The notes: generated by a model not told the origin, from the letters alone. A DNA stretch of 47,743 bases from an uncultured Gammaproteobacteria bacterium (GCA_964645545.1 CAZXZR010000003.1:1-47743), one strand, 5' to 3'. Positions 5,357 through 29,127 are shown, numbered from the stretch's first letter. A program made the numbers and translations.

Positions 5357-5427
5357 AAAAAATGACCCTTTAAAGCCTTTTTATTTAAAAAAATTTAGCT
5401 TATTTAAGCCCGATTTTTAAGATTTTT

Positions 5428-7792
5428 TTAAACCAGCTTGCGCACCCTCATCTTCTTGTAGAAAATCTGCTTGACCAGTTCCACAGTGAAGAGATAAATA
5501 AGGACCGTCAAGAAGATAACCAGAAGCGCCCGGCCGGGCACGACCTGAAAACCGAAAAAGCCGCCGACCCGGCCCTGGGTCAAAAGGAAACCGACTAAAA
5601 CCGCGCCCAAGGTCGTGAAAACCAGATAGCGGCTCGGCCGCGACTGGAGGAAAGGGATTTTTTGCGTGCGGATGCTTCGGTTTCCGCAAATAGTCTTCAT
5701 CCACGTTGTCGGCCGGGATGGAAAGCTGGGAGCCGTCGTAGAGGAAGTTGTTGAGCAGAATCTGGCCGGCAGTCATGGGGAAGAAGGGCAGGAAAAGGCT
5801 GGCGCCGATCAAGGAAAACATATTGCCGAAATTGGAGCTTAGGCCCATAAGCAGGTATTTCATGGTGTTGCCGAAGCTTTTGCGGCCTTCAAGGACCCCG
5901 GCCATCAGTTCTTTTAAGCCTTTTTCCAGGAGAATGATGTCGGCCGTGTCTTTGGCCACGTCCACGGCGTTGTCCACGGAAATGCCGACGTCGGCGCTTT
6001 TCAAAGACGGGGCGTCGTTGATGCCGTCGCCCAAGTAGCCGACGGTCAGGCCGTGGCGCTTCAATTCGGCGATGATTTTTTCCTTTTGGCTCGGTGAGAG
6101 GCGGGCGCAAATCGTCGCCGTTTTCGTTTTCAAATAGATTTCCTCGTCGCTCAAAAGGTTCAAATCCAGGTCGTCGCCGGTGACGATGCCCTCGATTTCC
6201 AGGTCCAGGTCGCGGCAGATTTTTTCCGTGACCAAGGGGCAATCGCCGGTCAGGATCTTTATGTCCACCCCGTGCGCTTTCATGAAAACCAAGGTTTCCT
6301 TGACGCCGGCCTTGGGCGGATCGTAGAAAGCCATAAAACCCAACAGGGCCAAGTCGCGTTCCTCGCCGACTTCGTAACGCTTCTTTTCCCGCCCGATGTT
6401 TTTGGCGGCGATGGCCAGCAGCCTTAAGCCCTGCCGGCTTAAATCATCATAGACGGCCCGGGCTTTTTTTAAGACCGCCTTTGTCAGGACTTCGTTTTTC
6501 CCGTTTTCTTGGTAAAACGAGCTGATCTTGAAGATTTCTTCCGGCGCCCCCTTGGTGACCATAGTCAGGCGGCCGGCCGTCTTATAGATAATGGAGGAGC
6601 GCTTGCGGCTGAAGCTGTAAGGCAGCTCCTCCACTTTTTCATAAGCGCGCAAATCCATTGGCCGATAATCCAGGATCGCCTGATCCAGGATGCTCTTGAT
6701 GCCGGTTTCAAAATAGCCGTTAAGGTAGGCTTGGCTGAAGACGGAAAGGGAATCGCGGCCGAAAAGGTCCACGTGTTTTATCAGCGTGATGCGGTTTTCG
6801 GTCAAGGTGCCGGTCTTGTCCGTGCATAAGACGTCCATGGAACCGAAAGTGGGGATGGCGTTGAGCTTTTTTACAAGGACGCCGCCCCGGCTCATTTTCA
6901 AGGCGCCCTTGGCCAGGTTGACGCTGATTATCATCGGCAAAAGTTCGGGCGTGATGCCCACGGCCACGGCCAGGGCGAAGAGGAAGGAATTAAGGATGCC
7001 CTTATGGTTCAAGGCGTTGAGGAAAAAGATGACGGCGACGATGAAGGCGATGACGCGGACGATGAGGAGGCCGAAGCCGCGGATGCCTTTTTCAAAGGCG
7101 TTCGCTTCCGCCGGCCGCCGGAGTTTTTCGGCCAGGCGGCCCAACTCGGTTTGCGCGCCGATGGCGGTGACCAGGAATTGGCTGAAGCCGGAGACGACGT
7201 TGGTGCCGGAAAAGACGACGTCGTTTTCCGGCCCGTATTTTTCCACGGGCAGACTTTCGCCGGTGAGCGCGGATTCGTTGACGAAGAAATCATTGGCGCT
7301 GATGATTTTGCCGTCGGCCGGCACGATGTCGCCGGCCGCCAGGAAAACTAGGTCGCCGGGCACGAGGTATTTGACGTTCAGGGAAATTTTTCGGCCGTCA
7401 CGCCGGACATCGGCGGCAATGGCCAGCCGACGGGTCAGTTTGTCGCTGACGCCGGTAGCCTTGCGCTCCTGGTAAAAATTCAGGCCGATGCTCAAGAATA
7501 TTATGAGGAGAATGATGGTCAGGCTGTGCATCTGGCCGGTCAGACCGGAAATCAGGGCGGCGAAAATCAGGACGATGAGGAGCGGATTTTTGAAATAATT
7601 TAGGAATTGGAGGATGGGCGGGACTTTCTTGGCTTTGGCGATCTGGTTGTAGCCGAAAAGGCGGGAGCGCTTGATGGCTTCCTTGGTCGTGAGGCCCCCG
7701 GGAGAAGAAGCGGTCAAGCGGAAAAATTCTTCCAGGCCGGTCTTTTTCAGGGCGGACGCGCTTAGGGCCGGATTTTTTAAAGCAGTTTTCAT
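5428..7792 (-). pseudogene. mgtA: Magnesium-translocating P-type ATPase with an internal deletion and frameshift near the C-terminus
   Basis: TGES, AVGITPELLP, DKTGTLT, GDGINDAP, SSNFGNMFS motifs. After DEDYLRKPKH (~5673) the sequence jumps to IRTQKIPFLQSRPS in another frame that ends at 5428. Confidence 0.85.
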
Positions 7793-7799
7793 GCTTACA

Positions 7800-8645
7800 T
7801 TATAGCATCGCTTCGGGTTTTCCCGTCAATAATCGGCGGAATTTTTCCGTTTCCGCGGCCGCTTTTTCCAAAGGCAGAAGGAGCTCTTTCAAGAGGCGGC
7901 CGGACGGCTTCAGGCCCGCTTCGGCGGCCTTTTGCCGGGCTTTGGCCGTCAAACTTTTGATTTGTTCCGCGAGGCTGGAAGCGCTAAGGGCGAAAAGCAA
8001 GCGCGGAATTTCCGGTCGGGCGGCCGGATCCAGGGGGAGGCGGCGTCTTTTCGCCGCCCTTAAGAGGGGGAGGTTGGCGGCCGTTATCAAGCCCCGCCGC
8101 AAATCTTCTTCCCAGTCGCGGGCGTCGTCGGCCAATTGTTTAGCCGCCAAGCCGTAGCGCCAGAAGTCCAGGGCGGCCCGGCTTTCCCGGCTCCGAACCG
8201 GCCGACCGAGGTAGCTTAAGGCCGCCAGTGGGGCGAGCGCCAGGGCCAAGGATTTTCGGGACAATTCCGTCGGGCGGGGAAAGCCGGGCCAGCGGCCCGG
8301 CCAAAGCAGGCGCCCTTTTTGTATCTTCAAGCGCGGCCTTAAAACTTCGGCGCGATCGGCGGCTTCCAAATCGGCCATAAGGCGATCACCAAGGCGGTAA
8401 TAGTCAGTTGGCAAATTTAGGCGGTAAAGGCCGGTTAAAAAACGGCGGCGATAAGAATTGGCCAAGGGCAATTTTTGCCTTTGGCCCTGGCCGTCTAAAA
8501 AATCATCGTAGATATTTAATGATTGCCAGAGATAAAATTGGGTTTGGTTGAGGCGTTTAATTAAAGTTGGGGCAATTTTTCTCTTTCTCGGATCATTTAA
8601 AGCCTCTTTAAACCATTGCGGCCAGAAATAGACAGAGGTTTTCAT
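7800..8645 (-). CDS. Class I isoprenoid synthase/prenyltransferase-fold protein (ComQ-like candidate)
   Basis: Two Asp-rich motifs, IYDDFLDG and KQLADDARDWEED, in a 281-aa helical protein; SRKS precedes the second motif. Confidence 0.7.
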   Translation of the reverse strand: MKTSVYFWPQWFKEALNDPRKRKIAPTLIKRLNQTQFYLWQSLNIYDDFLDGQGQRQKLPLANSYRRRFLTGLYRLNLPTDYYRLGDRLMADLEAADRAEVLRPRLKIQKGRLLWPGRWPGFPRPTELSRKSLALALAPLAALSYLGRPVRSRESRAALDFWRYGLAAKQLADDARDWEEDLRRGLITAANLPLLRAAKRRRLPLDPAARPEIPRLLFALSASSLAEQIKSLTAKARQKAAEAGLKPSGRLLKELLLPLEKAAAETEKFRRLLTGKPEAML

Positions 8646-8660
8646 TGCTTTTGTTAGGGT

Positions 8661-10037
8661 TTAAGCCGTTTTTAAGGGCAAAGACAAATTAAATTCACTG
8701 CCGCGTCCCAGTTCGCTATTGAGCGTTATTTTTCCTTGAAAATCTTTTTCCACGATGTGCTTGGCGGAAGCCAGGCCCAGGCCCAAGCCGCGACCCCCTT
8801 CTTTTTTCGTGCTGAAAAAGGGTTCAAAGACACGGCTTTGATCGGCGGCGGCAATACCACAGCCCCGATCAACTACTTTCAGCAAGAGTTTACTGCCATT
8901 AATCGCCATTTTGACGCTGACGATTTTTTCCTTTTTATTATTTTCGCAAGCCTCGATGGCGTTGGCGAGCAGGTTGGTGATGACTTGTCCGAATTTAATC
9001 GGATCCCCGTAAAGGCGGGCGTCAGGGCCTTTAAGTTCCAGGCGCACGCCGGCGCGCCGGGCCTTGTAGACGAGAATTTGCAAGGTCTGGGAAATTTCCT
9101 CGCGCACGGAAAAATTTTTCTTTTCGTTTTCGCGGGCGATCTGCTTCTTAATGCTCGCGATTAAGTTCTCCATCTTCCTGGTCGCTAAAAGCGCTTGGCT
9201 TAAGTATGATTTGGCGTTGCTAATCTGGTTTTGCCCCTCACTTTTTATCTGCTCCAAATTTAGGGAAACGGCGGTCAAGGGATTAACGAGATCGTGAAAA
9301 ATACCGGAGGACAAACGCCCGAATTCCGCCAAGCGGTAAAGTTGGTTGATTTTTTCCGCTTGCATTTGTCTGATTTGTTGCGTTCGCTCTTCCACTTTAA
9401 TTTCCAATAAGTCCCTTTCTGTTTTCAAGGCTTCTTCGCTTTGTCGGGCGCGTTTTAAAGCCCGGCCGATTTCGCGGCTGAAAAGCCAGGCGACGGCGGC
9501 AATAACCATAAACAGGACGGCGTAAGCAATGGCGTCGGCCAATTCGTGTTGACCGGCGCGCCAGGAAATATCCACGGCGATTAAATTATGCGCCTGCAGG
9601 TAAGTGAGCAAGAGAGAAAAGACAATAAAAACGGCGGTGCTGATTAAAGCCAAATTGGCGCCCAAAAGAATGCCCGACAAAGTGATCATCAAAACGGCTA
9701 AAAGCAGGCCGGCCGGCAAGTCCGCGCCCCAGACGATAAAAGAATAGAACATGGGCAAAGAATAAGTGATGATTAAAAGACTGGCGGCCGTTTTCACCGC
9801 GCCTTTTCTGTTTAACCAAAAAAGGAAGACAAAAAAGGCCATAATCAGGAGGGTATAAACGAAGGGCAAGCCGTGATGCGGGTCTTTAATGACGTCAATT
9901 AAGCGGATAACGTTAATGACGAAAAAGCAGGCGAGGGAAAATAAGAGGAGAATGTTTAAGATCAGTTCGCGCCGCCTTTTGTCTTCATTTTCGGCCCGCG
10001 GGTGAATGAGTTTTCCCAAAAATATTTTTATTGACAT
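8661..10037 (-). CDS. Membrane sensor histidine kinase with about 6 TM segments
   Basis: H box FHDLVNPL, N box NLLANAIEA, DRGCGI, FEPFFSTK, GLGLGL; polytopic N-terminus without a large extracellular domain. Confidence 0.95.
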   Translation of the reverse strand: MSIKIFLGKLIHPRAENEDKRRRELILNILLLFSLACFFVINVIRLIDVIKDPHHGLPFVYTLLIMAFFVFLFWLNRKGAVKTAASLLIITYSLPMFYSFIVWGADLPAGLLLAVLMITLSGILLGANLALISTAVFIVFSLLLTYLQAHNLIAVDISWRAGQHELADAIAYAVLFMVIAAVAWLFSREIGRALKRARQSEEALKTERDLLEIKVEERTQQIRQMQAEKINQLYRLAEFGRLSSGIFHDLVNPLTAVSLNLEQIKSEGQNQISNAKSYLSQALLATRKMENLIASIKKQIARENEKKNFSVREEISQTLQILVYKARRAGVRLELKGPDARLYGDPIKFGQVITNLLANAIEACENNKKEKIVSVKMAINGSKLLLKVVDRGCGIAAADQSRVFEPFFSTKKEGGRGLGLGLASAKHIVEKDFQGKITLNSELGRGSEFNLSLPLKTA

Positions 10038-10071
10038 AGTTTAGTTTTTAACCGGCGTTGGGGCGGAAATT

Positions 10072-10104
10072 AAAAACACTTCCGGCTCCGAAGAAGCGGA
10101 AGTG
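10072..10104 (-). terminator. Intrinsic terminator or attenuator between the peptide gene and the kinase
   Basis: Minus strand CACTTCCG...CGGAAGTG followed by TTTTT, about 10 bp after the peptide stop. Confidence 0.65.
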
Positions 10105-10113
10105 CCCGTAATC

Positions 10114-10224
10114 CTAATTGCGCCACGGCGTGCCGGGATTTAAGACTGCGGCCAAGAGCATGGCCATTAAAGCCATTTCTTTAAGCCGCGCTTTAATTAG
10201 GATTTTTTTATTCATTTTTCCCAT
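10114..10224 (-). CDS. 36-aa peptide MGKMNKKILIKARLKEMALMAMLLAAVLNPGTPWRN (ComX-like pheromone precursor candidate)
   Basis: Translated by hand (below ORF-track cutoff); own TATAAT at 10284-10289 and downstream terminator; single Trp third from the C-terminus; alternative ATG at 10215. Confidence 0.65.
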   Translation of the reverse strand: MGKMNKKILIKARLKEMALMAMLLAAVLNPGTPWRN

Positions 10225-10281
10225 AGCTTTTTTCTTTAAAACAGCGACGCGGCGATACGACCTTTAAATTTATCGCCGCTG

Positions 10282-10333
10282 TTATTATAGTCTCTCGGGA
10301 ATAAATATTTTTTAAATTATTTTTAAAAATAAG
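10282..10333 (-). promoter_or_regulatory. Peptide-gene promoter: TATAAT plus 11-bp-periodic TTTA repeats in place of a -35 box
   Basis: TATAAT at 10284-10289; near-copy of 11294-11345 at the same spacing. Confidence 0.5.
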
Positions 10334-10335
10334 TT

Positions 10336-11010
10336 TTATTTAATTTTTTCCTCCAATTTATAGCCGCGGCCGGAAACGGTTCGGATTAAAGGGCCCTGCG
10401 GGGCGGCAATTTTTTGCCGCAGTTTCATAATATGGACTTCAATGGTATTGGAAAAGGGATCGGCATTTTCGTCCCAAACGTGTTCCATGATTTCCTGGCG
10501 TGAAAGGACGCGGCCGGCGTTAGCCATTAAATATTCCAAAAGCGCGAATTCCTTAGTGGACAGGGGCAGGCGCCGGCTTTGGAAGCTGGCCGCGAATTTA
10601 TCCGGATCCAATTCCAAGTCGCCGATTTTTAAGATATTTTCCTTAAGCTTTTCCGGCCGGCGCAGAAGCGCTTTGACACGGGACAAAAGTTCGGAAAGGA
10701 CAAAGGGTTTAGTCAAGTAATCGTCGGCGCCCGAATCCAAAAGTTCCACTTTATCCTTGATTTCGGAACGGACGGTGAGCATAAGGATGGGGACTTGTCG
10801 GTTGTCAGCGCGGATTTTCTCCACAATTTCTTTGCCGTTTAAGCCGGGCAGATTATAGTCTAAAATAATCAGATCGTAAACGTTGGTTAGAGCCGTAAAA
10901 CAGCCTTTTTCGCCGTCGTTAGCTGTGTCCACGGTAAAACCGGCTTCTTTCAAAGCCAGACTCAAAGGGCGGACGATTTCCGCGTCGTCTTCAATGATTA
11001 ATAGACGCAT
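10336..11010 (-). CDS. OmpR/PhoB-family response regulator
   Basis: Receiver LIIEDD...LIILDYNLP...GADDYLTKPF; winged helix SNTIEVHIMKLRQK...TVSGRGY. Confidence 0.96.
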   Translation of the reverse strand: MRLLIIEDDAEIVRPLSLALKEAGFTVDTANDGEKGCFTALTNVYDLIILDYNLPGLNGKEIVEKIRADNRQVPILMLTVRSEIKDKVELLDSGADDYLTKPFVLSELLSRVKALLRRPEKLKENILKIGDLELDPDKFAASFQSRRLPLSTKEFALLEYLMANAGRVLSRQEIMEHVWDENADPFSNTIEVHIMKLRQKIAAPQGPLIRTVSGRGYKLEEKIK

Positions 11011-11022
11011 AAATTTATTTAT

Positions 11023-11051
11023 ATTTTAGCTCAAATTTTAAAGAATGGCAA
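11023..11051 (-). promoter_or_regulatory. Sigma70-type promoter of the response regulator
   Basis: TTGCCA (11046-11051), 17 bp, TAAAAT (11023-11028); implies a very short leader. Confidence 0.55.
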
Positions 11052-11056
11052 TCAAA

Positions 11057-11092
11057 TTATCCCCGCCGCCTTTTAAGGAACGGCGGGGATAA
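11057..11092 (-). terminator. Strong hairpin after the Cys-rich ORF
   Basis: TTATCCCCGCCG/CGGCGGGGATAA 12-bp stem. Confidence 0.65.
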
Positions 11093-11094
11093 AT

Positions 11095-11277
11095 TTAGGC
11101 CCGAAAAAAGTCTTCGGGTAAAAGAACGTCCTCGGGCTCATAGCGGCCGAAAGGCCTAGGGGCGCAATAGGCGCAATCGCAAGGCCCTAAATGGCAGAGG
11201 GGCAAATAGCCGAGCCAGATTTTATGCCGGCAGTCCCCGCGTTTAAAACACTGATGTTTTAGGCAAGCTTTGCTCAT
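11095..11277 (-). CDS. Small Cys-rich hypothetical protein (60 aa)
   Basis: ATG, 7 Cys including CDCAYC, upstream TATAAT (11296-11301), downstream hairpin. Confidence 0.55.
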   Translation of the reverse strand: MSKACLKHQCFKRGDCRHKIWLGYLPLCHLGPCDCAYCAPRPFGRYEPEDVLLPEDFFRA

Positions 11278-11415: not shown

Positions 11416-13527
11416 ATGAGCGCGAAAATTTTCAAAATCGCCAAAAAGAAACGTTGGGCCGAGAGCTTAGAAGAGAAAAAAAGCGATCCTTTCGCCATTA
11501 AGGAAGGCAAATACGGTTTTGGCCAGCTTAAAGACTCTTTCTATCATACCGATTGGACGGAGCAGTCCTTTTTATCTGACACCAGCTGCAAAGAAGTGGT
11601 TAGCCGGACTTTTGATTTTTCTCGTTTAAAGTATTACGTTCTCTTCGCCGTTTTTACCCTTTTAATTATTTTTACTCGCGCCGCTTGGCTGCAAGTGATA
11701 AGAGGCGGTTACTATTACCTCCTCTCGGAAGGCAATCGTTTGCGTTCGGAAACCATCGAGGCCAAGCGAGGTGTAATTTACAGTCGGGACATGAAGCCCT
11801 TGGTCAGGAATAAGGCCAACTTCGTCCTCTATTTCCTGCCCGTGGATCTGCCCAAGGACGAATTGACGCGTGATGATTTAATTCGAAAAATCAGCTGCAT
11901 TTTGGAGGGCCAGCCGCCGCCGCCGCCGACTCCTGAAATCCTGGCCGCTAGCAGTAAAGAACTGGATCTGGTCAAGGACAACGCCACTTTCTATAGGATC
12001 AAGGAATTTTTGGCCGCCATAAAAATCGGTTCTTTAGAGTCGTATCGGCCTTTGTTTGTGGCCGATAATATCGCCTACGACAAAGCCATGCTCATTTCCC
12101 TGTCTTTAGAGAATTGGCCGGGGGTGTTTTTGACCACCAAAATCAGGCGCGAATACCTTTTACCAACTTCGGCCACGACCAGTGCCGTGTTAGGTGAGAG
12201 TAGTTTAGCCCATATTTTAGGCTATACCGGCAAGATAAACGCCGATGAATTGGCGACTTTGGGTCCTGACTATTCTTTAATTGATTACGTCGGTAAAGTC
12301 GGCTTGGAATATTCTTGGGAGAAAGAATTAAAAGGCCAAGCCGGCCAGAAAAATATTGAAGTGGACGCTTTGGGGCGGCAGGAAAAAGTCATTAATGAAG
12401 TGCCGGCCCTAGACGGCGATAATTTAGTTCTGTCTTTGGATGCCGCTTTACAGGCCAAGGCGGAAGAAGTCCTAGAAGCCTATATTAGTAAAGCTAATTT
12501 AAAGCGCGCCGCCGTTATTGTTATGAATCCAAATAACGGCGAAATCTTGGCTTTGGTCAGTTTGCCCAGCTATAACAATAACGCTTTCGCCCGCGGTATC
12601 AACCAGGAAGAGTATGATAAGTTTTTAAACAATCCCAACCAGCCCTTGTTTAACCGGGCCATTAGCGGCGAACTACCTTCCGGTTCCACCATTAAGCCGA
12701 TTTTCGCCGCCGGCGCCCTGCAAGACAAAGTTATCACCGAGAAGACCACGGTTTTAAGCACGGGCGGGCTTCAGGTCGGCGACTGGTTCTTCCCGGACTG
12801 GAAAGCGGGCGGCCATGGTTTAACTGACGTTAAATCAGCTTTAGCTTGGTCCATAAACACCTTCTTTTACTATATCGGCGGCGGCTACGGCGATTTTAAA
12901 GGTTTGGGCGTGGACGGTTTAGATAAGTACGCCGAGCTTTTCGGCTTGGGAGAAAAAACCGGCATTGACTTGCCTGGGGAAGCGACCGGCTTCGTGCCCA
13001 CCGCCGCTTGGAAGCAGGCGGTCAAAGGCGAATCTTGGTACATCGGCGACACTTATCATTTCGCCATTGGTCAGGGCGATGTTTTGGTCACGCCTTTACA
13101 GGTGGCTAATTACACGGCCGCTATCGCCAACGGCGGCACTTTGTATGTTCCCCATTTGGTTACCGAAGTTTTACACTCGGATAATAGCTTGCTTTACGAG
13201 GTCCAGCCGCAAGTTTTACGGAGTGATTTTATCGCCCCGGCCAATTTAGCCATTGTCCGCGCCGGCCTGCGCCAAACCGTTACGGCCGGCAGCGCCCAAT
13301 CTTTGCAAAGCCTGCCGGTTAGCGTGGCCGGCAAGACCGGCACGGCTCAATGGTCCACGAAAAATTCTCCGCATGCCTGGTTTACCGGTTTCGCTCCCTA
13401 TGAAAATCCGCAAATCGTCATTACCGTTTTAGTGGAAGAGGGCGTGGAAGGCAGTACTATCGCCGTGCTCATAGCCCGCGATATTTTAAATTGGTATTTT
13501 AGTCAGCCCGAACATCGCTCCTCTTAA
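11416..13527 (+). CDS. mrdA: Penicillin-binding protein 2
   Basis: Single TM, dimerisation domain (GKVGLE), SxxK (GSTIK), SxN (SIN), KTG (AGKTGTAQ). Confidence 0.92.
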   Translation: MSAKIFKIAKKKRWAESLEEKKSDPFAIKEGKYGFGQLKDSFYHTDWTEQSFLSDTSCKEVVSRTFDFSRLKYYVLFAVFTLLIIFTRAAWLQVIRGGYYYLLSEGNRLRSETIEAKRGVIYSRDMKPLVRNKANFVLYFLPVDLPKDELTRDDLIRKISCILEGQPPPPPTPEILAASSKELDLVKDNATFYRIKEFLAAIKIGSLESYRPLFVADNIAYDKAMLISLSLENWPGVFLTTKIRREYLLPTSATTSAVLGESSLAHILGYTGKINADELATLGPDYSLIDYVGKVGLEYSWEKELKGQAGQKNIEVDALGRQEKVINEVPALDGDNLVLSLDAALQAKAEEVLEAYISKANLKRAAVIVMNPNNGEILALVSLPSYNNNAFARGINQEEYDKFLNNPNQPLFNRAISGELPSGSTIKPIFAAGALQDKVITEKTTVLSTGGLQVGDWFFPDWKAGGHGLTDVKSALAWSINTFFYYIGGGYGDFKGLGVDGLDKYAELFGLGEKTGIDLPGEATGFVPTAAWKQAVKGESWYIGDTYHFAIGQGDVLVTPLQVANYTAAIANGGTLYVPHLVTEVLHSDNSLLYEVQPQVLRSDFIAPANLAIVRAGLRQTVTAGSAQSLQSLPVSVAGKTGTAQWSTKNSPHAWFTGFAPYENPQIVITVLVEEGVEGSTIAVLIARDILNWYFSQPEHRSS

Positions 13528-28317: not shown

Positions 28318-29127
28318 TTAGCGGGCGATTGTCAGCCAGGCGATAACGGCGGCCGCCAGGGCCAGGCGGTACCAGCCGAAAGGCCGGAAGTCGTGCTTTT
28401 GGATGAATTTTAGGAAGAAGCGGACGGCGATGACGGCGGTCAAGAAGGCGGCGATGAAGCCCAAGAGCCAGACGAACTTGTCGGCACCGGGCAAAAGGCC
28501 CAAAGCCCGCCGGCTTTCGTAAAGGTCTAGGACCGTGGCCGCCAGCATGGTCGGAATGGCCAGGAGGAAAGAAAATTCCACGATACTCTTCCGTTTTACG
28601 CCCAAAGCCAAACCGCCGATGATGGTCGCGGCCGCCCGGGAAACGCCCGGGACGATCGCCAGGGCCTGGAAAAGCCCGATCCAAAGCGCCTGTCGGTAAG
28701 AAATTTTTTCCAGAACGAGATCGCCGCCTGCCGCTGTTTGGAGAAGGGCGTTTTTTTCCGCGTAATACCTTTCAAAGAGAAGCAAAACAAGGCCGCCGAC
28801 CGCCAAGGCGCCGGCGACGACGTAAGCGTTGCCGAGCAAAAAGTTTTTGACGAGTTTATAGAAAATCAAACCGATAAGTGCGGTCGGCAGGAAAGCCGCC
28901 AGGATTTTTCCGATCAATTCCCAGCTGGACCAGAGCCGGCGCCAATAAAGGACGACCACGGCTAGAATCGCGCCCAACTGTATGGAAATTTCAAAAGTTT
29001 TTAAAAAGGCCGTCGGCGGAATCCGCAACCAGGCGCTGGCCAGGATGAGATGGGCCGTAGAAGATATGGGCAGGAATTCGGTTAGGCCTTCGATTATACC
29101 TAATATTAGGCCATGGATGATGGTCAT
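28318..29127 (-). CDS. uppP: Undecaprenyl-diphosphate phosphatase
   Basis: EGLTEFLPISSTAH, PGVSRAAATI, EFSFLLAIP. Confidence 0.96.
   Translation of the reverse strand: MTIIHGLILGIIEGLTEFLPISSTAHLILASAWLRIPPTAFLKTFEISIQLGAILAVVVLYWRRLWSSWELIGKILAAFLPTALIGLIFYKLVKNFLLGNAYVVAGALAVGGLVLLLFERYYAEKNALLQTAAGGDLVLEKISYRQALWIGLFQALAIVPGVSRAAATIIGGLALGVKRKSIVEFSFLLAIPTMLAATVLDLYESRRALGLLPGADKFVWLLGFIAAFLTAVIAVRFFLKFIQKHDFRPFGWYRLALAAAVIAWLTIAR

Follow-up and report, generated by a model that had tools for sequence, protein, structure and literature searches.

ComX168, a peptide of the ComX pheromone system of Bacillus, carries a farnesyl group on the tryptophan that stands third from its C-terminus (PMC13731918), and a preprint reports that ComQ and StheQ carry a pseudo-second motif, NDxxx, in which an Asn-to-Asp change removes 90-98% of activity (10.64898/2026.08.29.745113). 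PalQ belongs to the isoprenoid-synthase superfamily, is remote from its annotated subfamilies and accepts C5-C15 donors (PMC10853753); it has also been described as requiring a terminal tryptophan (review PMC13290415). According to section 2.4 of that review, all of the characterised trans-IDS-like peptide prenyltransferases act on tryptophan. The review also describes a glutamine that they share just upstream of the second Asp-rich motif, and places this glutamine and the first aspartate of the motif near the indole NH (PMC13290415).

The cassette described here looks like a new, uncharacterised relative of the ComX system. It was found in a window (the whole stretch of DNA analysed, 47,743 nucleotides) that a sequence-only reading had attributed to a probable CPR bacterium, and the source names of homologues do place the host lineage in the Patescibacteria/Falkowbacteria. 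The four co-oriented genes of that reading were all recovered on the minus strand, in the 5′ to 3′ order regulator, 36-aa peptide, kinase and 281-aa enzyme, with operon-like gaps of 111 nt (regulator-peptide), 76 nt (peptide-kinase) and 15 nt (kinase-enzyme). The features, in transcriptional order, are these:

11023..11051, minus strand: sigma-70-like promoter match (TTGCCA-17-TAAAAT) a short way ahead of the regulator start, 10/12 consensus positions; a consensus match only
10336..11010, minus strand: OmpR-family response regulator, 224 aa (Response_reg 5.7e-27, Trans_reg_C 3.9e-27)
10114..10224, minus strand: 36-aa precursor-like peptide, MGKMNKKILIKARLKEMALMAMLLAAVLNPGTPWRN, Lys-rich at its N-terminus and with NPGTPWRN as its conserved C-terminal core
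10077..10098, minus strand: terminator-like hairpin and T-run in the gap from peptide stop to kinase start, -14.7 kcal/mol
8661..10037, minus strand: histidine kinase, 458 aa; six-helix membrane module, then HisKA and HATPase_c
[quoted passage not shown]
5417..7792, minus strand: mgtA-like gene for a Mg2+-type P-type ATPase, broken here, 7 nt downstream of the enzyme gene and in the same orientation

A promoter scan over the whole 4 kb gave 8 sites, against 3.7 expected from shuffles. The regulator is of the OmpR type, as had been proposed; it scores under the cut-off of every named equivalog, and is thus not assignable to one, and its position upstream of the peptide is conserved in homologous loci. 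In the kinase, HATPase_c was matched together with a weak HisKA (22.5 bits against a cut-off of 26.9), and the hydrophobic stretches over residues ~22-191 (window 9465-9974) were read from hydropathy as six membrane helices. Hydropathy also indicates short loops and no large external domain, in support of the earlier description of a kinase with about six TM helices that lacks one. The N-terminal module suggests, as a lead only, a MASE-type membrane sensor. Full-length orthologues of the kinase occur in homologous loci at 49-65% identity, and at 33-41% in loci where the enzyme is fused. Genes for an exporter or a processing protease are absent from the cassette. The product of the mgtA-like gene matches TIGR01524 at 708.8 bits over residues 18-712 only; homologue residues 15-712 lie in one frame and 770-844 in another, with ~57 residues missing. 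An intact mgtA stands downstream of the enzyme gene in 11/39 homologous loci, and the gene may be a target or cargo of the cassette.

The hidden 36-aa peptide that had been proposed is present, and is conserved in every homologous locus where it could be assessed (34 of 39; the other 5 are cut by contig ends). In all 31 of the loci that have an interval between regulator and kinase, this interval holds a small ORF that ends in NPG(T/I)PWR-x or close to it. In the three loci without a two-component system, a Trp-tailed ORF with a NAATPWRD or GNWIPWRD end stands directly upstream of the enzyme gene, so that a Trp-tailed ORF is paired with the enzyme gene in 34/34. The expected synteny of small ORF and kinase was thus seen, with the kinase absent in 3 loci. 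In the alignment of these peptides P33, W34 and R35 are invariant, and N29, P30 and G31 reach at least 90%; the codon of Trp34, which stands third from the C-terminus, is at 10123-10125. Across the 31 loci, every Pro codon and every Gly codon (four each) and four Arg codons occur in the conserved tail with no change of residue, and such synonymous variation points to selection on the residues rather than on the DNA. The peptide motif pattern has a single match in the whole genome, which is the 36-aa ORF. By these comparisons the ORF is a real gene, beyond chance, and across the homologous loci it is inseparable from the enzyme gene.

The two motifs noted in the 281-aa protein were located at residues 47-51 (DDFLD, D47-D48-x-x-D51; window 8493-8507) and 170-177 (QLADDARD, Q170-x-x-D173-D174-x-x-D177; window 8115-8138). 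D47, D48, D51, K131, Q170, D173, D174, D177 and D181 do not vary among 49 aligned homologues of the enzyme, and Q170 and D173 fit the Gln/Asp signature of trans-IDS-like peptide Trp prenyltransferases. A profile search against PDB sequences gave nothing meaningful. The predicted structure (pLDDT 95.2, pTM 0.92) was best matched in Foldseek by 3aqb_B (E 7.6e-5), and the 12 matches at E<=0.001 were all prenyl synthases or Ord1. The best structural match overall was 9jqs_A (Z 18.7, rmsd 3.0 A over 244 residues), others being the indole prenyltransferase Ord1 (Z 15.6) and MoeN5 (Z 13.4), and the best 30 structural matches listed were prenyl synthases and prenyltransferases. From this model, the product of 7800-8645 is confidently assigned the trans-isoprenyl-diphosphate-synthase fold, as the proposed comparison with ComQ and terpene synthases had anticipated.

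A chain-elongating synthase had been named beforehand as the outcome that would speak against prenylation of the peptide, and by its sequence the enzyme does not look like one. No Pfam or NCBIfam model was matched at E<=1, whether PF00348 for chain-elongating synthases or any other ComQ or polyprenyl-synthase model. Five canonical Patescibacteria synthases hold K47, R50, R95 and R96 invariant, in the IPP-binding motifs GGKxxR, near the N-terminus, and RRG, which comes after the first Asp-rich motif. The enzyme family has no invariant Lys or Arg before R67 and no conserved Lys/Arg pair near its N-terminus, and in hhalign it places non-basic residues opposite RR; this profile-profile alignment is weak (E 0.055), and residue equivalences accordingly come mainly from the fold match.

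The family extends well beyond these loci. A profile search with the enzyme family returned 1469 representatives at E<=1e-3, and relatives are spread across the Patescibacteria; among the matches listed, ~45 are short forms and most others are proteins of 540-700 aa with the enzyme domain at the C-terminus. The N-terminal domain of these fused relatives carries PYPDDLDDT, four residues of which are conserved at 90% or more, and it resembles the class II cyclase domain of drimenol synthase (9mhs_B, E 3.2e-14). The Q-x-x-D-D pattern persists in the fusions, where Q544, D547 and D551 are invariant. Regulator, Trp peptide and homologous kinase precede the longer form of the enzyme in 13/13 assessable loci (12 cyclase fusions and one 442-aa variant), one of which, L074, has a canonical polyprenyl synthase gene inside the cassette. 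The peptides of these loci are 35-39 aa long with Trp 2-7 residues from the end; in the fused form they have a conserved leader and variable tails with Trp alone in common. PF00348 was found in 10/12 genomes carrying the fused form and in 146/388 others in the sample, a comparison uncorrected for relatedness. A single cyclase-domain query found no such domain in the source genome.

Taken together, there is a slightly better than even chance that the cassette belongs with ComQXPA and PalPXQ as a peptide-signal module. By this analogy tryptophan would be the acceptor, a prenyl chain the group transferred, and the kinase the receptor. The 36-aa ORF would yield a precursor whose Lys-rich leader varies and whose C-terminal core is fixed. 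The enzyme, which shows no hydrophobic stretch by hydropathy and would be cytoplasmic, could use its two Asp-rich motifs, Mg2+ and Lys131 to hold an allylic prenyl diphosphate, and move the prenyl group onto the indole of Trp34. The lipidated peptide, possibly trimmed, would then be sensed in or at the membrane by the six-helix module of the kinase, which would phosphorylate the OmpR-type regulator, and the latter would control the operon and, where present, the downstream mgtA.

The main problem for the prenylation reading is the supply of prenyl donor, for the carrier genome has no visible donor pathway. In the source genome (93.5% complete), there was no match to polyprenyl_synt, UppS, IspH or the GHMP kinases, in searches that picked up the controls in 10-14 of 14 reference genomes. 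A whole-genome search with PF00348 gave zero matches, the 281-aa gene included, where 14/14 control genomes were detected, and within the same genus PF00348 occurs in only 2/36 genomes. The source genome does carry polyprenyl-carrier genes, namely two of the MraY/WecA type and BacA/UppP.

This difficulty lends some weight to the idea that the peptide is the enzyme's substrate in a chemistry other than ComX-type Trp prenylation, with Arg35 or the C-terminus as acceptor, a lipid-cycle polyprenyl diphosphate as donor, or another reaction. No short-chain donor pathway is detectable and polyprenyl carriers are in use; both Asp-rich motifs are canonical, unlike those of ComQ, and the close family keeps Arg35 and Pro33 as strictly as it does Trp34. 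Such a chemistry is nonetheless rather unlikely, given that the characterised trans-IDS-like peptide prenyltransferases of the review are Trp-acting (PMC13290415), and that Trp is the sole residue common to all tails in the wider family, where YTYWLN-type tails lack both Arg and Pro. The class II terpene-cyclase fusion in relatives also argues for C15-C20 prenyl groups. It is quite improbable that the product of the small ORF is instead a micro-protein, in the membrane or regulatory, that acts on the kinase or MgtA on the model of MgrB, SafA or MgtS, the 281-aa protein having a separate role. The Lys-rich N-terminus and a hydrophobic stretch in the 36-aa peptide (best 15-residue window 1.91), the place of the ORF immediately upstream of the kinase, and the mgtA that follows the cassette in 11/39 loci would suit a micro-protein; a hydrophobic 15-residue window is, however, found in only 14/31 peptides, several of which are strongly polar, conservation is concentrated in the last eight residues rather than in a membrane helix, and the ORF stays with the enzyme gene in 3/3 kinase-less loci.

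The same three loci, where the ORF is directly upstream of the enzyme gene, also weigh against a regulatory leader peptide whose ribosome stalling or attenuation controls read-through into the kinase gene. Arrest peptides have a conserved C-terminal tail and a variable N-terminus, as does the 36-aa family, and in 26/30 loci a hairpin at least as stable as -8 kcal/mol, with T4+ behind it and a stem sequence that differs between loci, lies no more than 110 nt from the peptide stop. A terminator after a precursor gene would fit an abundant short precursor transcript equally well, however, and the fused-form peptides reverse the pattern, their leader being conserved and their tails variable except for Trp; a regulatory leader peptide is highly improbable. 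There is also the view of the 281-aa protein as a housekeeping isoprenoid or lipid-carrier enzyme that replaces polyprenyl synthase or UppS and is only regulated by the peptide and the two-component system. The protein has the fold and the two Asp-rich motifs of a prenyl diphosphate synthase, PF00348 and UppS are absent from the genome, and among 37 genomes of the genus the enzyme (24/37) and UppS (5/37) never occur together (Fisher p 0.003, uncorrected for relatedness). Replacement appears decidedly improbable all the same: 8/13 genus members without the enzyme also lack UppS, the other families of the order have the enzyme in 1/24 genomes and UppS in 21/24, searches for IspH and GHMP kinases gave no sign of an IPP source, the basic motifs for binding IPP lack conservation (in the weak alignment), and the invariant Trp peptide is left unexplained.

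Within the preferred reading of a prenylated peptide signal, the signal may stand for cell density, donor supply or the host; pherotype-style quorum sensing is unlikely, since the peptide core is invariant across species and ComX has no consensus. The cassette could conceivably be a sensor of donor availability or host contact rather than a quorum sensor, although this too is unlikely. In a cell unable to make prenyl diphosphates, lipidation of the peptide would be tied to arrival of the donor, and would take place only when a host-derived or lipid-cycle polyprenyl diphosphate reached the cytoplasmic enzyme; the MASE-like kinase could then read the lipidated peptide within the membrane, with no need of export. 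If so, an episymbiont would learn of host attachment and feeding, and could adjust its envelope and ion-transport genes. Candidate-phyla bacteria live on other cells, to which they attach, and their genomes are minimal; a conserved and experimentally tractable cassette, in which a soluble enzyme of 281 residues and its putative substrate of 36 residues stand beside a kinase, would offer a handle on how they sense neighbours or hosts. The family would also add an unannotated branch to the few synthase-fold enzymes that lipidate peptide tryptophan, which are wanted as biocatalysts. The missing donor pathway is a paradox whose answer could lie in metabolite supply by the host or in new chemistry for the fold.

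How close, then, is the cassette to the systems already described? The enzyme has its all-helical synthase fold in common with StheQ/StheX of Sphaerobacter thermophilus and with Ord1, along with donor binding (putative here) at the first Asp-rich motif, a Lys and, one helical turn ahead of the second motif, a Gln; a Trp-tailed ORF also lies next to StheQ. StheQ differs in its pseudo-motif with an essential Asn and its 69-aa substrate, and Ord1 is a farnesyltransferase of free tryptophan; neither is reported beside a two-component system.

With ComQXPA, the cassette shares four roles on one strand, a polytopic kinase and a locus without exporter or protease (PMC4008528), and with ComQ the trans-isoprenyl-diphosphate-synthase superfamily and a DDxxD first motif (preprint 10.64898/2026.08.29.745113). 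The synthase fold, the DDxxD first motif and the adjacent short Trp-tailed ORF are features of the ComQ family, and Trp34 holds the same place as the modified residue of ComX168, third from the C-terminus. Membership of the ComQ family (IPR033965) was rejected on the canonical DDxxD second motif, the OmpR-type regulator and the invariant peptide core; at the position of the ComQ Asn, set by the shared Q-x-x spacing rather than by direct alignment, the 281-aa family has an invariant Asp. The ComQXPA system as a whole fits no better: the order here is regulator-peptide-kinase-enzyme, the regulator is OmpR-type rather than NarL-type, the kinase differs from ComP in having HisKA and a six-helix MASE-like module, and the peptides, of 25-39 aa, have a core invariant in 31 loci whereas ComX is hypervariable and without consensus. 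The host differs as well, being a Patescibacteria genome without visible isoprenoid synthesis, where a 2014 census found com-like loci only in Firmicutes. The sequence-only claim that the four roles of comQXPA recur holds for gene set, fold and synteny, its prenylation and sensing steps standing as predictions, and falters on a second motif that is not ComQ-like and a genome with no visible donor pathway. The kind is already known beyond Bacillus from PalPXQ, StheQ/X and ChrPC, which makes the cassette less unprecedented than was assumed.

PalPXQ of Paenibacillus alvei likewise combines a histidine kinase (PalP), a precursor with a conserved C-terminal Trp (PalX) and a prenyltransferase (PalQ) (PMC10853753, section 2.1). 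PalX, compared by description, has a long NHLP leader and Trp as its last residue, in contrast to the ~25-residue leader and the two residues after Trp here. Finally, the 281-aa protein corresponds to a transferase domain alone and is not itself a ChrPC-type fusion. ChrPC uses C10-C20 donors to prenylate an internal Trp by its trans-IDS-like domain, and the chain is cyclised by the cyclase domain fused to it (PMC13290415), an arrangement resembled by the Patescibacteria relatives, in which a class II cyclase-like domain is joined to the transferase domain.

Four co-oriented genes in the window, previously taken in a sequence-only reading for a ComQXPA-like prenylated-peptide signalling system, are all present in the ORF listing on the minus strand, and the observation on which that reading was built is confirmed. 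These genes, together with the other features considered here, are arranged as follows.

10336-11010, minus strand: OmpR-type response regulator, 224 aa (Response_reg and Trans_reg_C matches)
10114-10224, minus strand: peptide ORF, 36 aa, MGKMNKKILIKARLKEMALMAMLLAAVLNPGTPWRN, conserved in homologous loci
10077-10098, minus strand: hairpin and T-run after the peptide stop codon (hairpin scan)
8661-10037, minus strand: histidine kinase, 458 aa (HATPase_c and a weak HisKA match)
7800-8645, minus strand: enzyme, 281 aa, with a synthase-like fold and without a family match
5417-7792, minus strand: mgtA-like P-type ATPase gene, 7 nt past the enzyme gene
28351-29109, minus strand: BacA/UppP match

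The regulator does not reach the cut-off of any named equivalog model in NCBIfam, and neither the 281-aa protein nor the 36-aa ORF matches a Pfam or NCBIfam family at E<=1. The DDFLD and QLADDARD motifs quoted earlier for the 281-aa protein lie at residues 47-51 and 170-177. Hydropathy places the hydrophobic stretches of the kinase across residues 22-191, which can be read as six helices joined by short loops, and an Atlas look-up, serving as a lead only, suggests a MASE-type membrane sensor module.

The surroundings of the cassette have features of their own. The spacer between regulator and peptide (10225-10335, minus strand) contains a TATAAT at 10284-10289, which the promoter scan did not report. 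Beyond it come an inverted repeat, GCGGCGATA ... TATCGCCGC, and a T-run, both ahead of the peptide start; the repeat may serve as a terminator for the regulator gene or as a stem at the 5′ end of the peptide transcript. A candidate 60-aa Cys-rich ORF (11095-11277, minus strand) lies between the cassette and a divergent PBP2-type gene (11416-13527) and has behind it a strong hairpin resembling a terminator (11057-11092); loci that have no two-component system also have the PBP2 gene as a neighbour. On the other side, the mgtA-like ATPase gene is broken, with homologue residues 15-712 at 7765-5672 in one frame, residues 770-844 at 5673-5449 in another and about 57 residues missing between them; the break marks a pseudogene or else a mistake in the assembly. 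In 11 of 39 homologous loci the enzyme gene has an intact mgtA after it.

Those 39 enzyme loci came from a scan of species-representative genomes, and they provide evidence for the peptide. Of these loci, 31 include the stretch upstream of the kinase gene, and all 31 contain a Trp-tailed ORF of 15-39 aa ending in NPG(T/I)PWR plus one variable residue; the exceptions are one NAG for NPG, one ORF without the last residue and one that is N-terminally shortened. In three further loci, which have no two-component system, a Trp-tailed ORF ending in NAATPWRD or GNWIPWRD adjoins the enzyme gene upstream (3/3). With the five loci cut by contig ends left out of the count, the ORF is found at 34 of 34 assessable loci. 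Alignment of the 31 peptides leaves P33, W34 and R35 invariant, and the tail codons are fully degenerate, with four codons each for Pro, Gly and Arg in use, so it is the peptide that is under selection. Towards the N-terminus the sequence varies and is rich in Lys; since a hydrophobic 15-residue window occurs in only 14 of the 31, what is conserved is not a membrane anchor. In 26 of 30 loci a hairpin and T-run come after the peptide stop codon, the stems differing in sequence, and the peptide motif occurs once in the genome. Judged from these alignments, the small ORF is a genuine gene, conserved and linked to that of the enzyme, and the pairing of the two is well supported on comparative grounds. 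A 2A-like reading of NPG(T/I)P was dropped, as the motif is not NPGP and the 2A mechanism is not known outside eukaryotic ribosomes. Prediction of an enzyme-peptide complex, with both partners supplied as alignments, scored 0.26 against a mark of 0.32 and counts neither for nor against the pairing.

Structural evidence bears on what the enzyme might do. Among 8000 candidates scored, 77 homologues were found at E<=0.001; where a source is named it is Patescibacteria or Falkowbacteria, and one homologue bears the name 'class 1 isoprenoid biosynthesis enzyme'. An AlphaFold2 model built on an alignment of 49 of the 77 reached a pLDDT of 95.2 and a pTM of 0.92. In an exhaustive comparison its best structural matches were trans-prenyl diphosphate synthases (9jqs_A, Z 18.7, rmsd 3.0 Å over 244 residues), next came Ord1 (Z 15.6) and MoeN5 (Z 13.4), prenyltransferases that do not elongate chains, and squalene synthase and class I cyclases stood at Z of about 11-12. 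Foldseek returned 12 matches at E<=0.001, all of them prenyl synthases or Ord1. The isoprenoid-synthase fold foreseen for this protein is borne out in the model, and the testable predictions of the sequence-only reading hold, in that a Trp-tailed ORF and a kinase are syntenic with the enzyme homologues and the enzyme has a synthase fold. Sequence and profile searches of the enzyme against PDB chains gave nothing usable, and the nearest Atlas clusters, again as a lead only, are unannotated or labelled 'prenyltransferase family' and come from Bacteroidota and Chloroflexota.

Invariant across the 49 homologues are D47, D48 and D51, E100, K131 and S132, Q170, D173, D174 and D177, and D181. A weak profile-profile alignment (E 0.055) with five canonical synthases from related genomes matches both Asp-rich motifs, the Lys, and D181 to the synthases' invariant Asp, and places non-basic residues opposite their invariant RR; the homologues have no invariant Lys or Arg ahead of R67. 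With the Asp-rich motifs and Lys kept and these basic residues apparently absent, the enzyme is predicted to retain the machinery that binds and ionises an allylic diphosphate, and it would be without an IPP site of the kind recognisable in elongating synthases. Comparative and modelling evidence together lend good support to a prenyl-handling family.

The family is wider than the lone transferase domain seen here. A profile search of 1.84 billion representatives yielded 1469 proteins at E<=1e-3 and 542 at E<=1e-30; among the matches listed, about 45 short forms came first, followed mostly by proteins of 540-700 aa with the transferase domain at the C-terminus. An alignment of 36 such long forms, plus one from a fetched locus, has an N-terminal domain with the consensus PYPDDLDDT, where D107, D109, D110 and T111 are kept at 90% or more. 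This domain is probably class II terpene-cyclase-like, given the motif, sub-threshold Pfam matches to squalene-hopene cyclase models in 12 of the 37 members, and a profile hit on drimenol synthase (9mhs_B, E 3.2e-14) that falls in its class II cyclase domain and brings the Asp motifs into register. Among 401 genomes sampled evenly from the phylum, there are 12 carriers other than the window's genome, all with long forms or fragments. The window's genus carries the family in 23 of 36 genomes (24 of 37 including the window's), mostly as short forms, and other families of the order gave one carrier among 24 genomes, with a fused form.

The same gene order recurs with the fused enzymes. Fourteen long-form loci were fetched, comprising 13 cyclase fusions and one 442-aa variant, and in the 13 that are not cut (one ends inside the kinase gene) the order is always regulator, 35-39-aa ORF, homologous kinase and enzyme. 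The kinases share 33-41% identity over almost their full length, and the peptides share a leader, MKxLxKKxLxxKxxR. Their tails (GNPWGGE, GIPWSGK, SPWYS, EPWTVA, YPWSGEAQ, SPWGPV, IPWR, MPWSDVAVP, YTYWLN, YTYWIN, YDYWLS and YSYWLS) have no residue in common except Trp. In one locus (L074) a canonical polyprenyl synthase gene lies between regulator and peptide, and in another (L062) a methyltransferase-like gene separates kinase and enzyme. Fused relatives with Trp-peptide cassettes (loci L062-L074) come from other Patescibacteria families.

From these patterns we infer that the Trp would be prenylated and that the kinase would sense the product, whatever biological meaning such a signal may have. 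The donor is the difficulty. In a genome of 714,785 bases that is 93.5% complete, no match was found to polyprenyl_synt, UppS, IspH or the GHMP-kinase domain, although the controls were detected in 10-14 of 14 reference genomes. The genome does have two MraY/WecA-type genes plus BacA/UppP, so the cell relies on polyprenyl carriers while apparently being unable to produce them, which implies that they would be scavenged. Of 36 other genomes in the genus, 2 have PF00348 and 5 have UppS, and enzyme and UppS never occur together (UppS in 0 of 24 enzyme carriers versus 5 of 13 others; Fisher p 0.003, kinship ignored), an exclusion that could stem from shared ancestry. Among carriers of the fused form, PF00348 is present in 10 of 12 genomes versus 146 of 388 others (p 0.002), with six carriers belonging to one family. 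Nothing else argues as strongly against simple ComX-like farnesylation in the window's lineage as this donor gap, and it motivates two alternative readings, namely use of a different donor, or sensing of the host's supply. As a separate observation, a related genome contains a 513-aa ORF (L080:312-1853, plus strand) in which an N-terminal domain of about 190 residues is apparently fused to a canonical polyprenyl synthase (PF00348); by eye only, this domain looks like a Nudix-type isopentenyl-diphosphate isomerase.

Among the publications searched, none was found to describe the cassette in Patescibacteria, and earlier coverage elsewhere is possible; comparable ComQXPA and PalPXQ systems are already known in other bacteria. 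A 2014 census places com-like loci in Firmicutes only (PMC4008528), and PalQ is described within a kinase-precursor-transferase cluster (PMC10853753). A 2026 review brings ComQ, PalQ and the ChrPC P domain together under trans-IDS-like peptide prenyltransferases, states that every characterised member acts on Trp and that the C domain of ChrPC cyclises the prenyl group afterwards, and puts a Gln just before the second Asp-rich motif, with that motif's first Asp, near the indole NH (PMC13290415); Q170 and D173 fit this pair. ComX168 is farnesylated on the Trp third from its C-terminus, the same position as Trp34 (PMC13731918). However, the ComQ family as defined in the StheQ preprint has DDxxD as its first motif and a pseudo-second motif, NDxxx, in which Asn to Asp costs 90-98% of activity (10.64898/2026.08.29.745113), whereas the enzyme family here has Asp at that position. 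Given the shared Trp position and the fitting Gln/Asp pair, yet Asp in place of Asn, the cassette is best filed as one that would work like ComQXPA and PalPXQ while lying outside the ComQ family.
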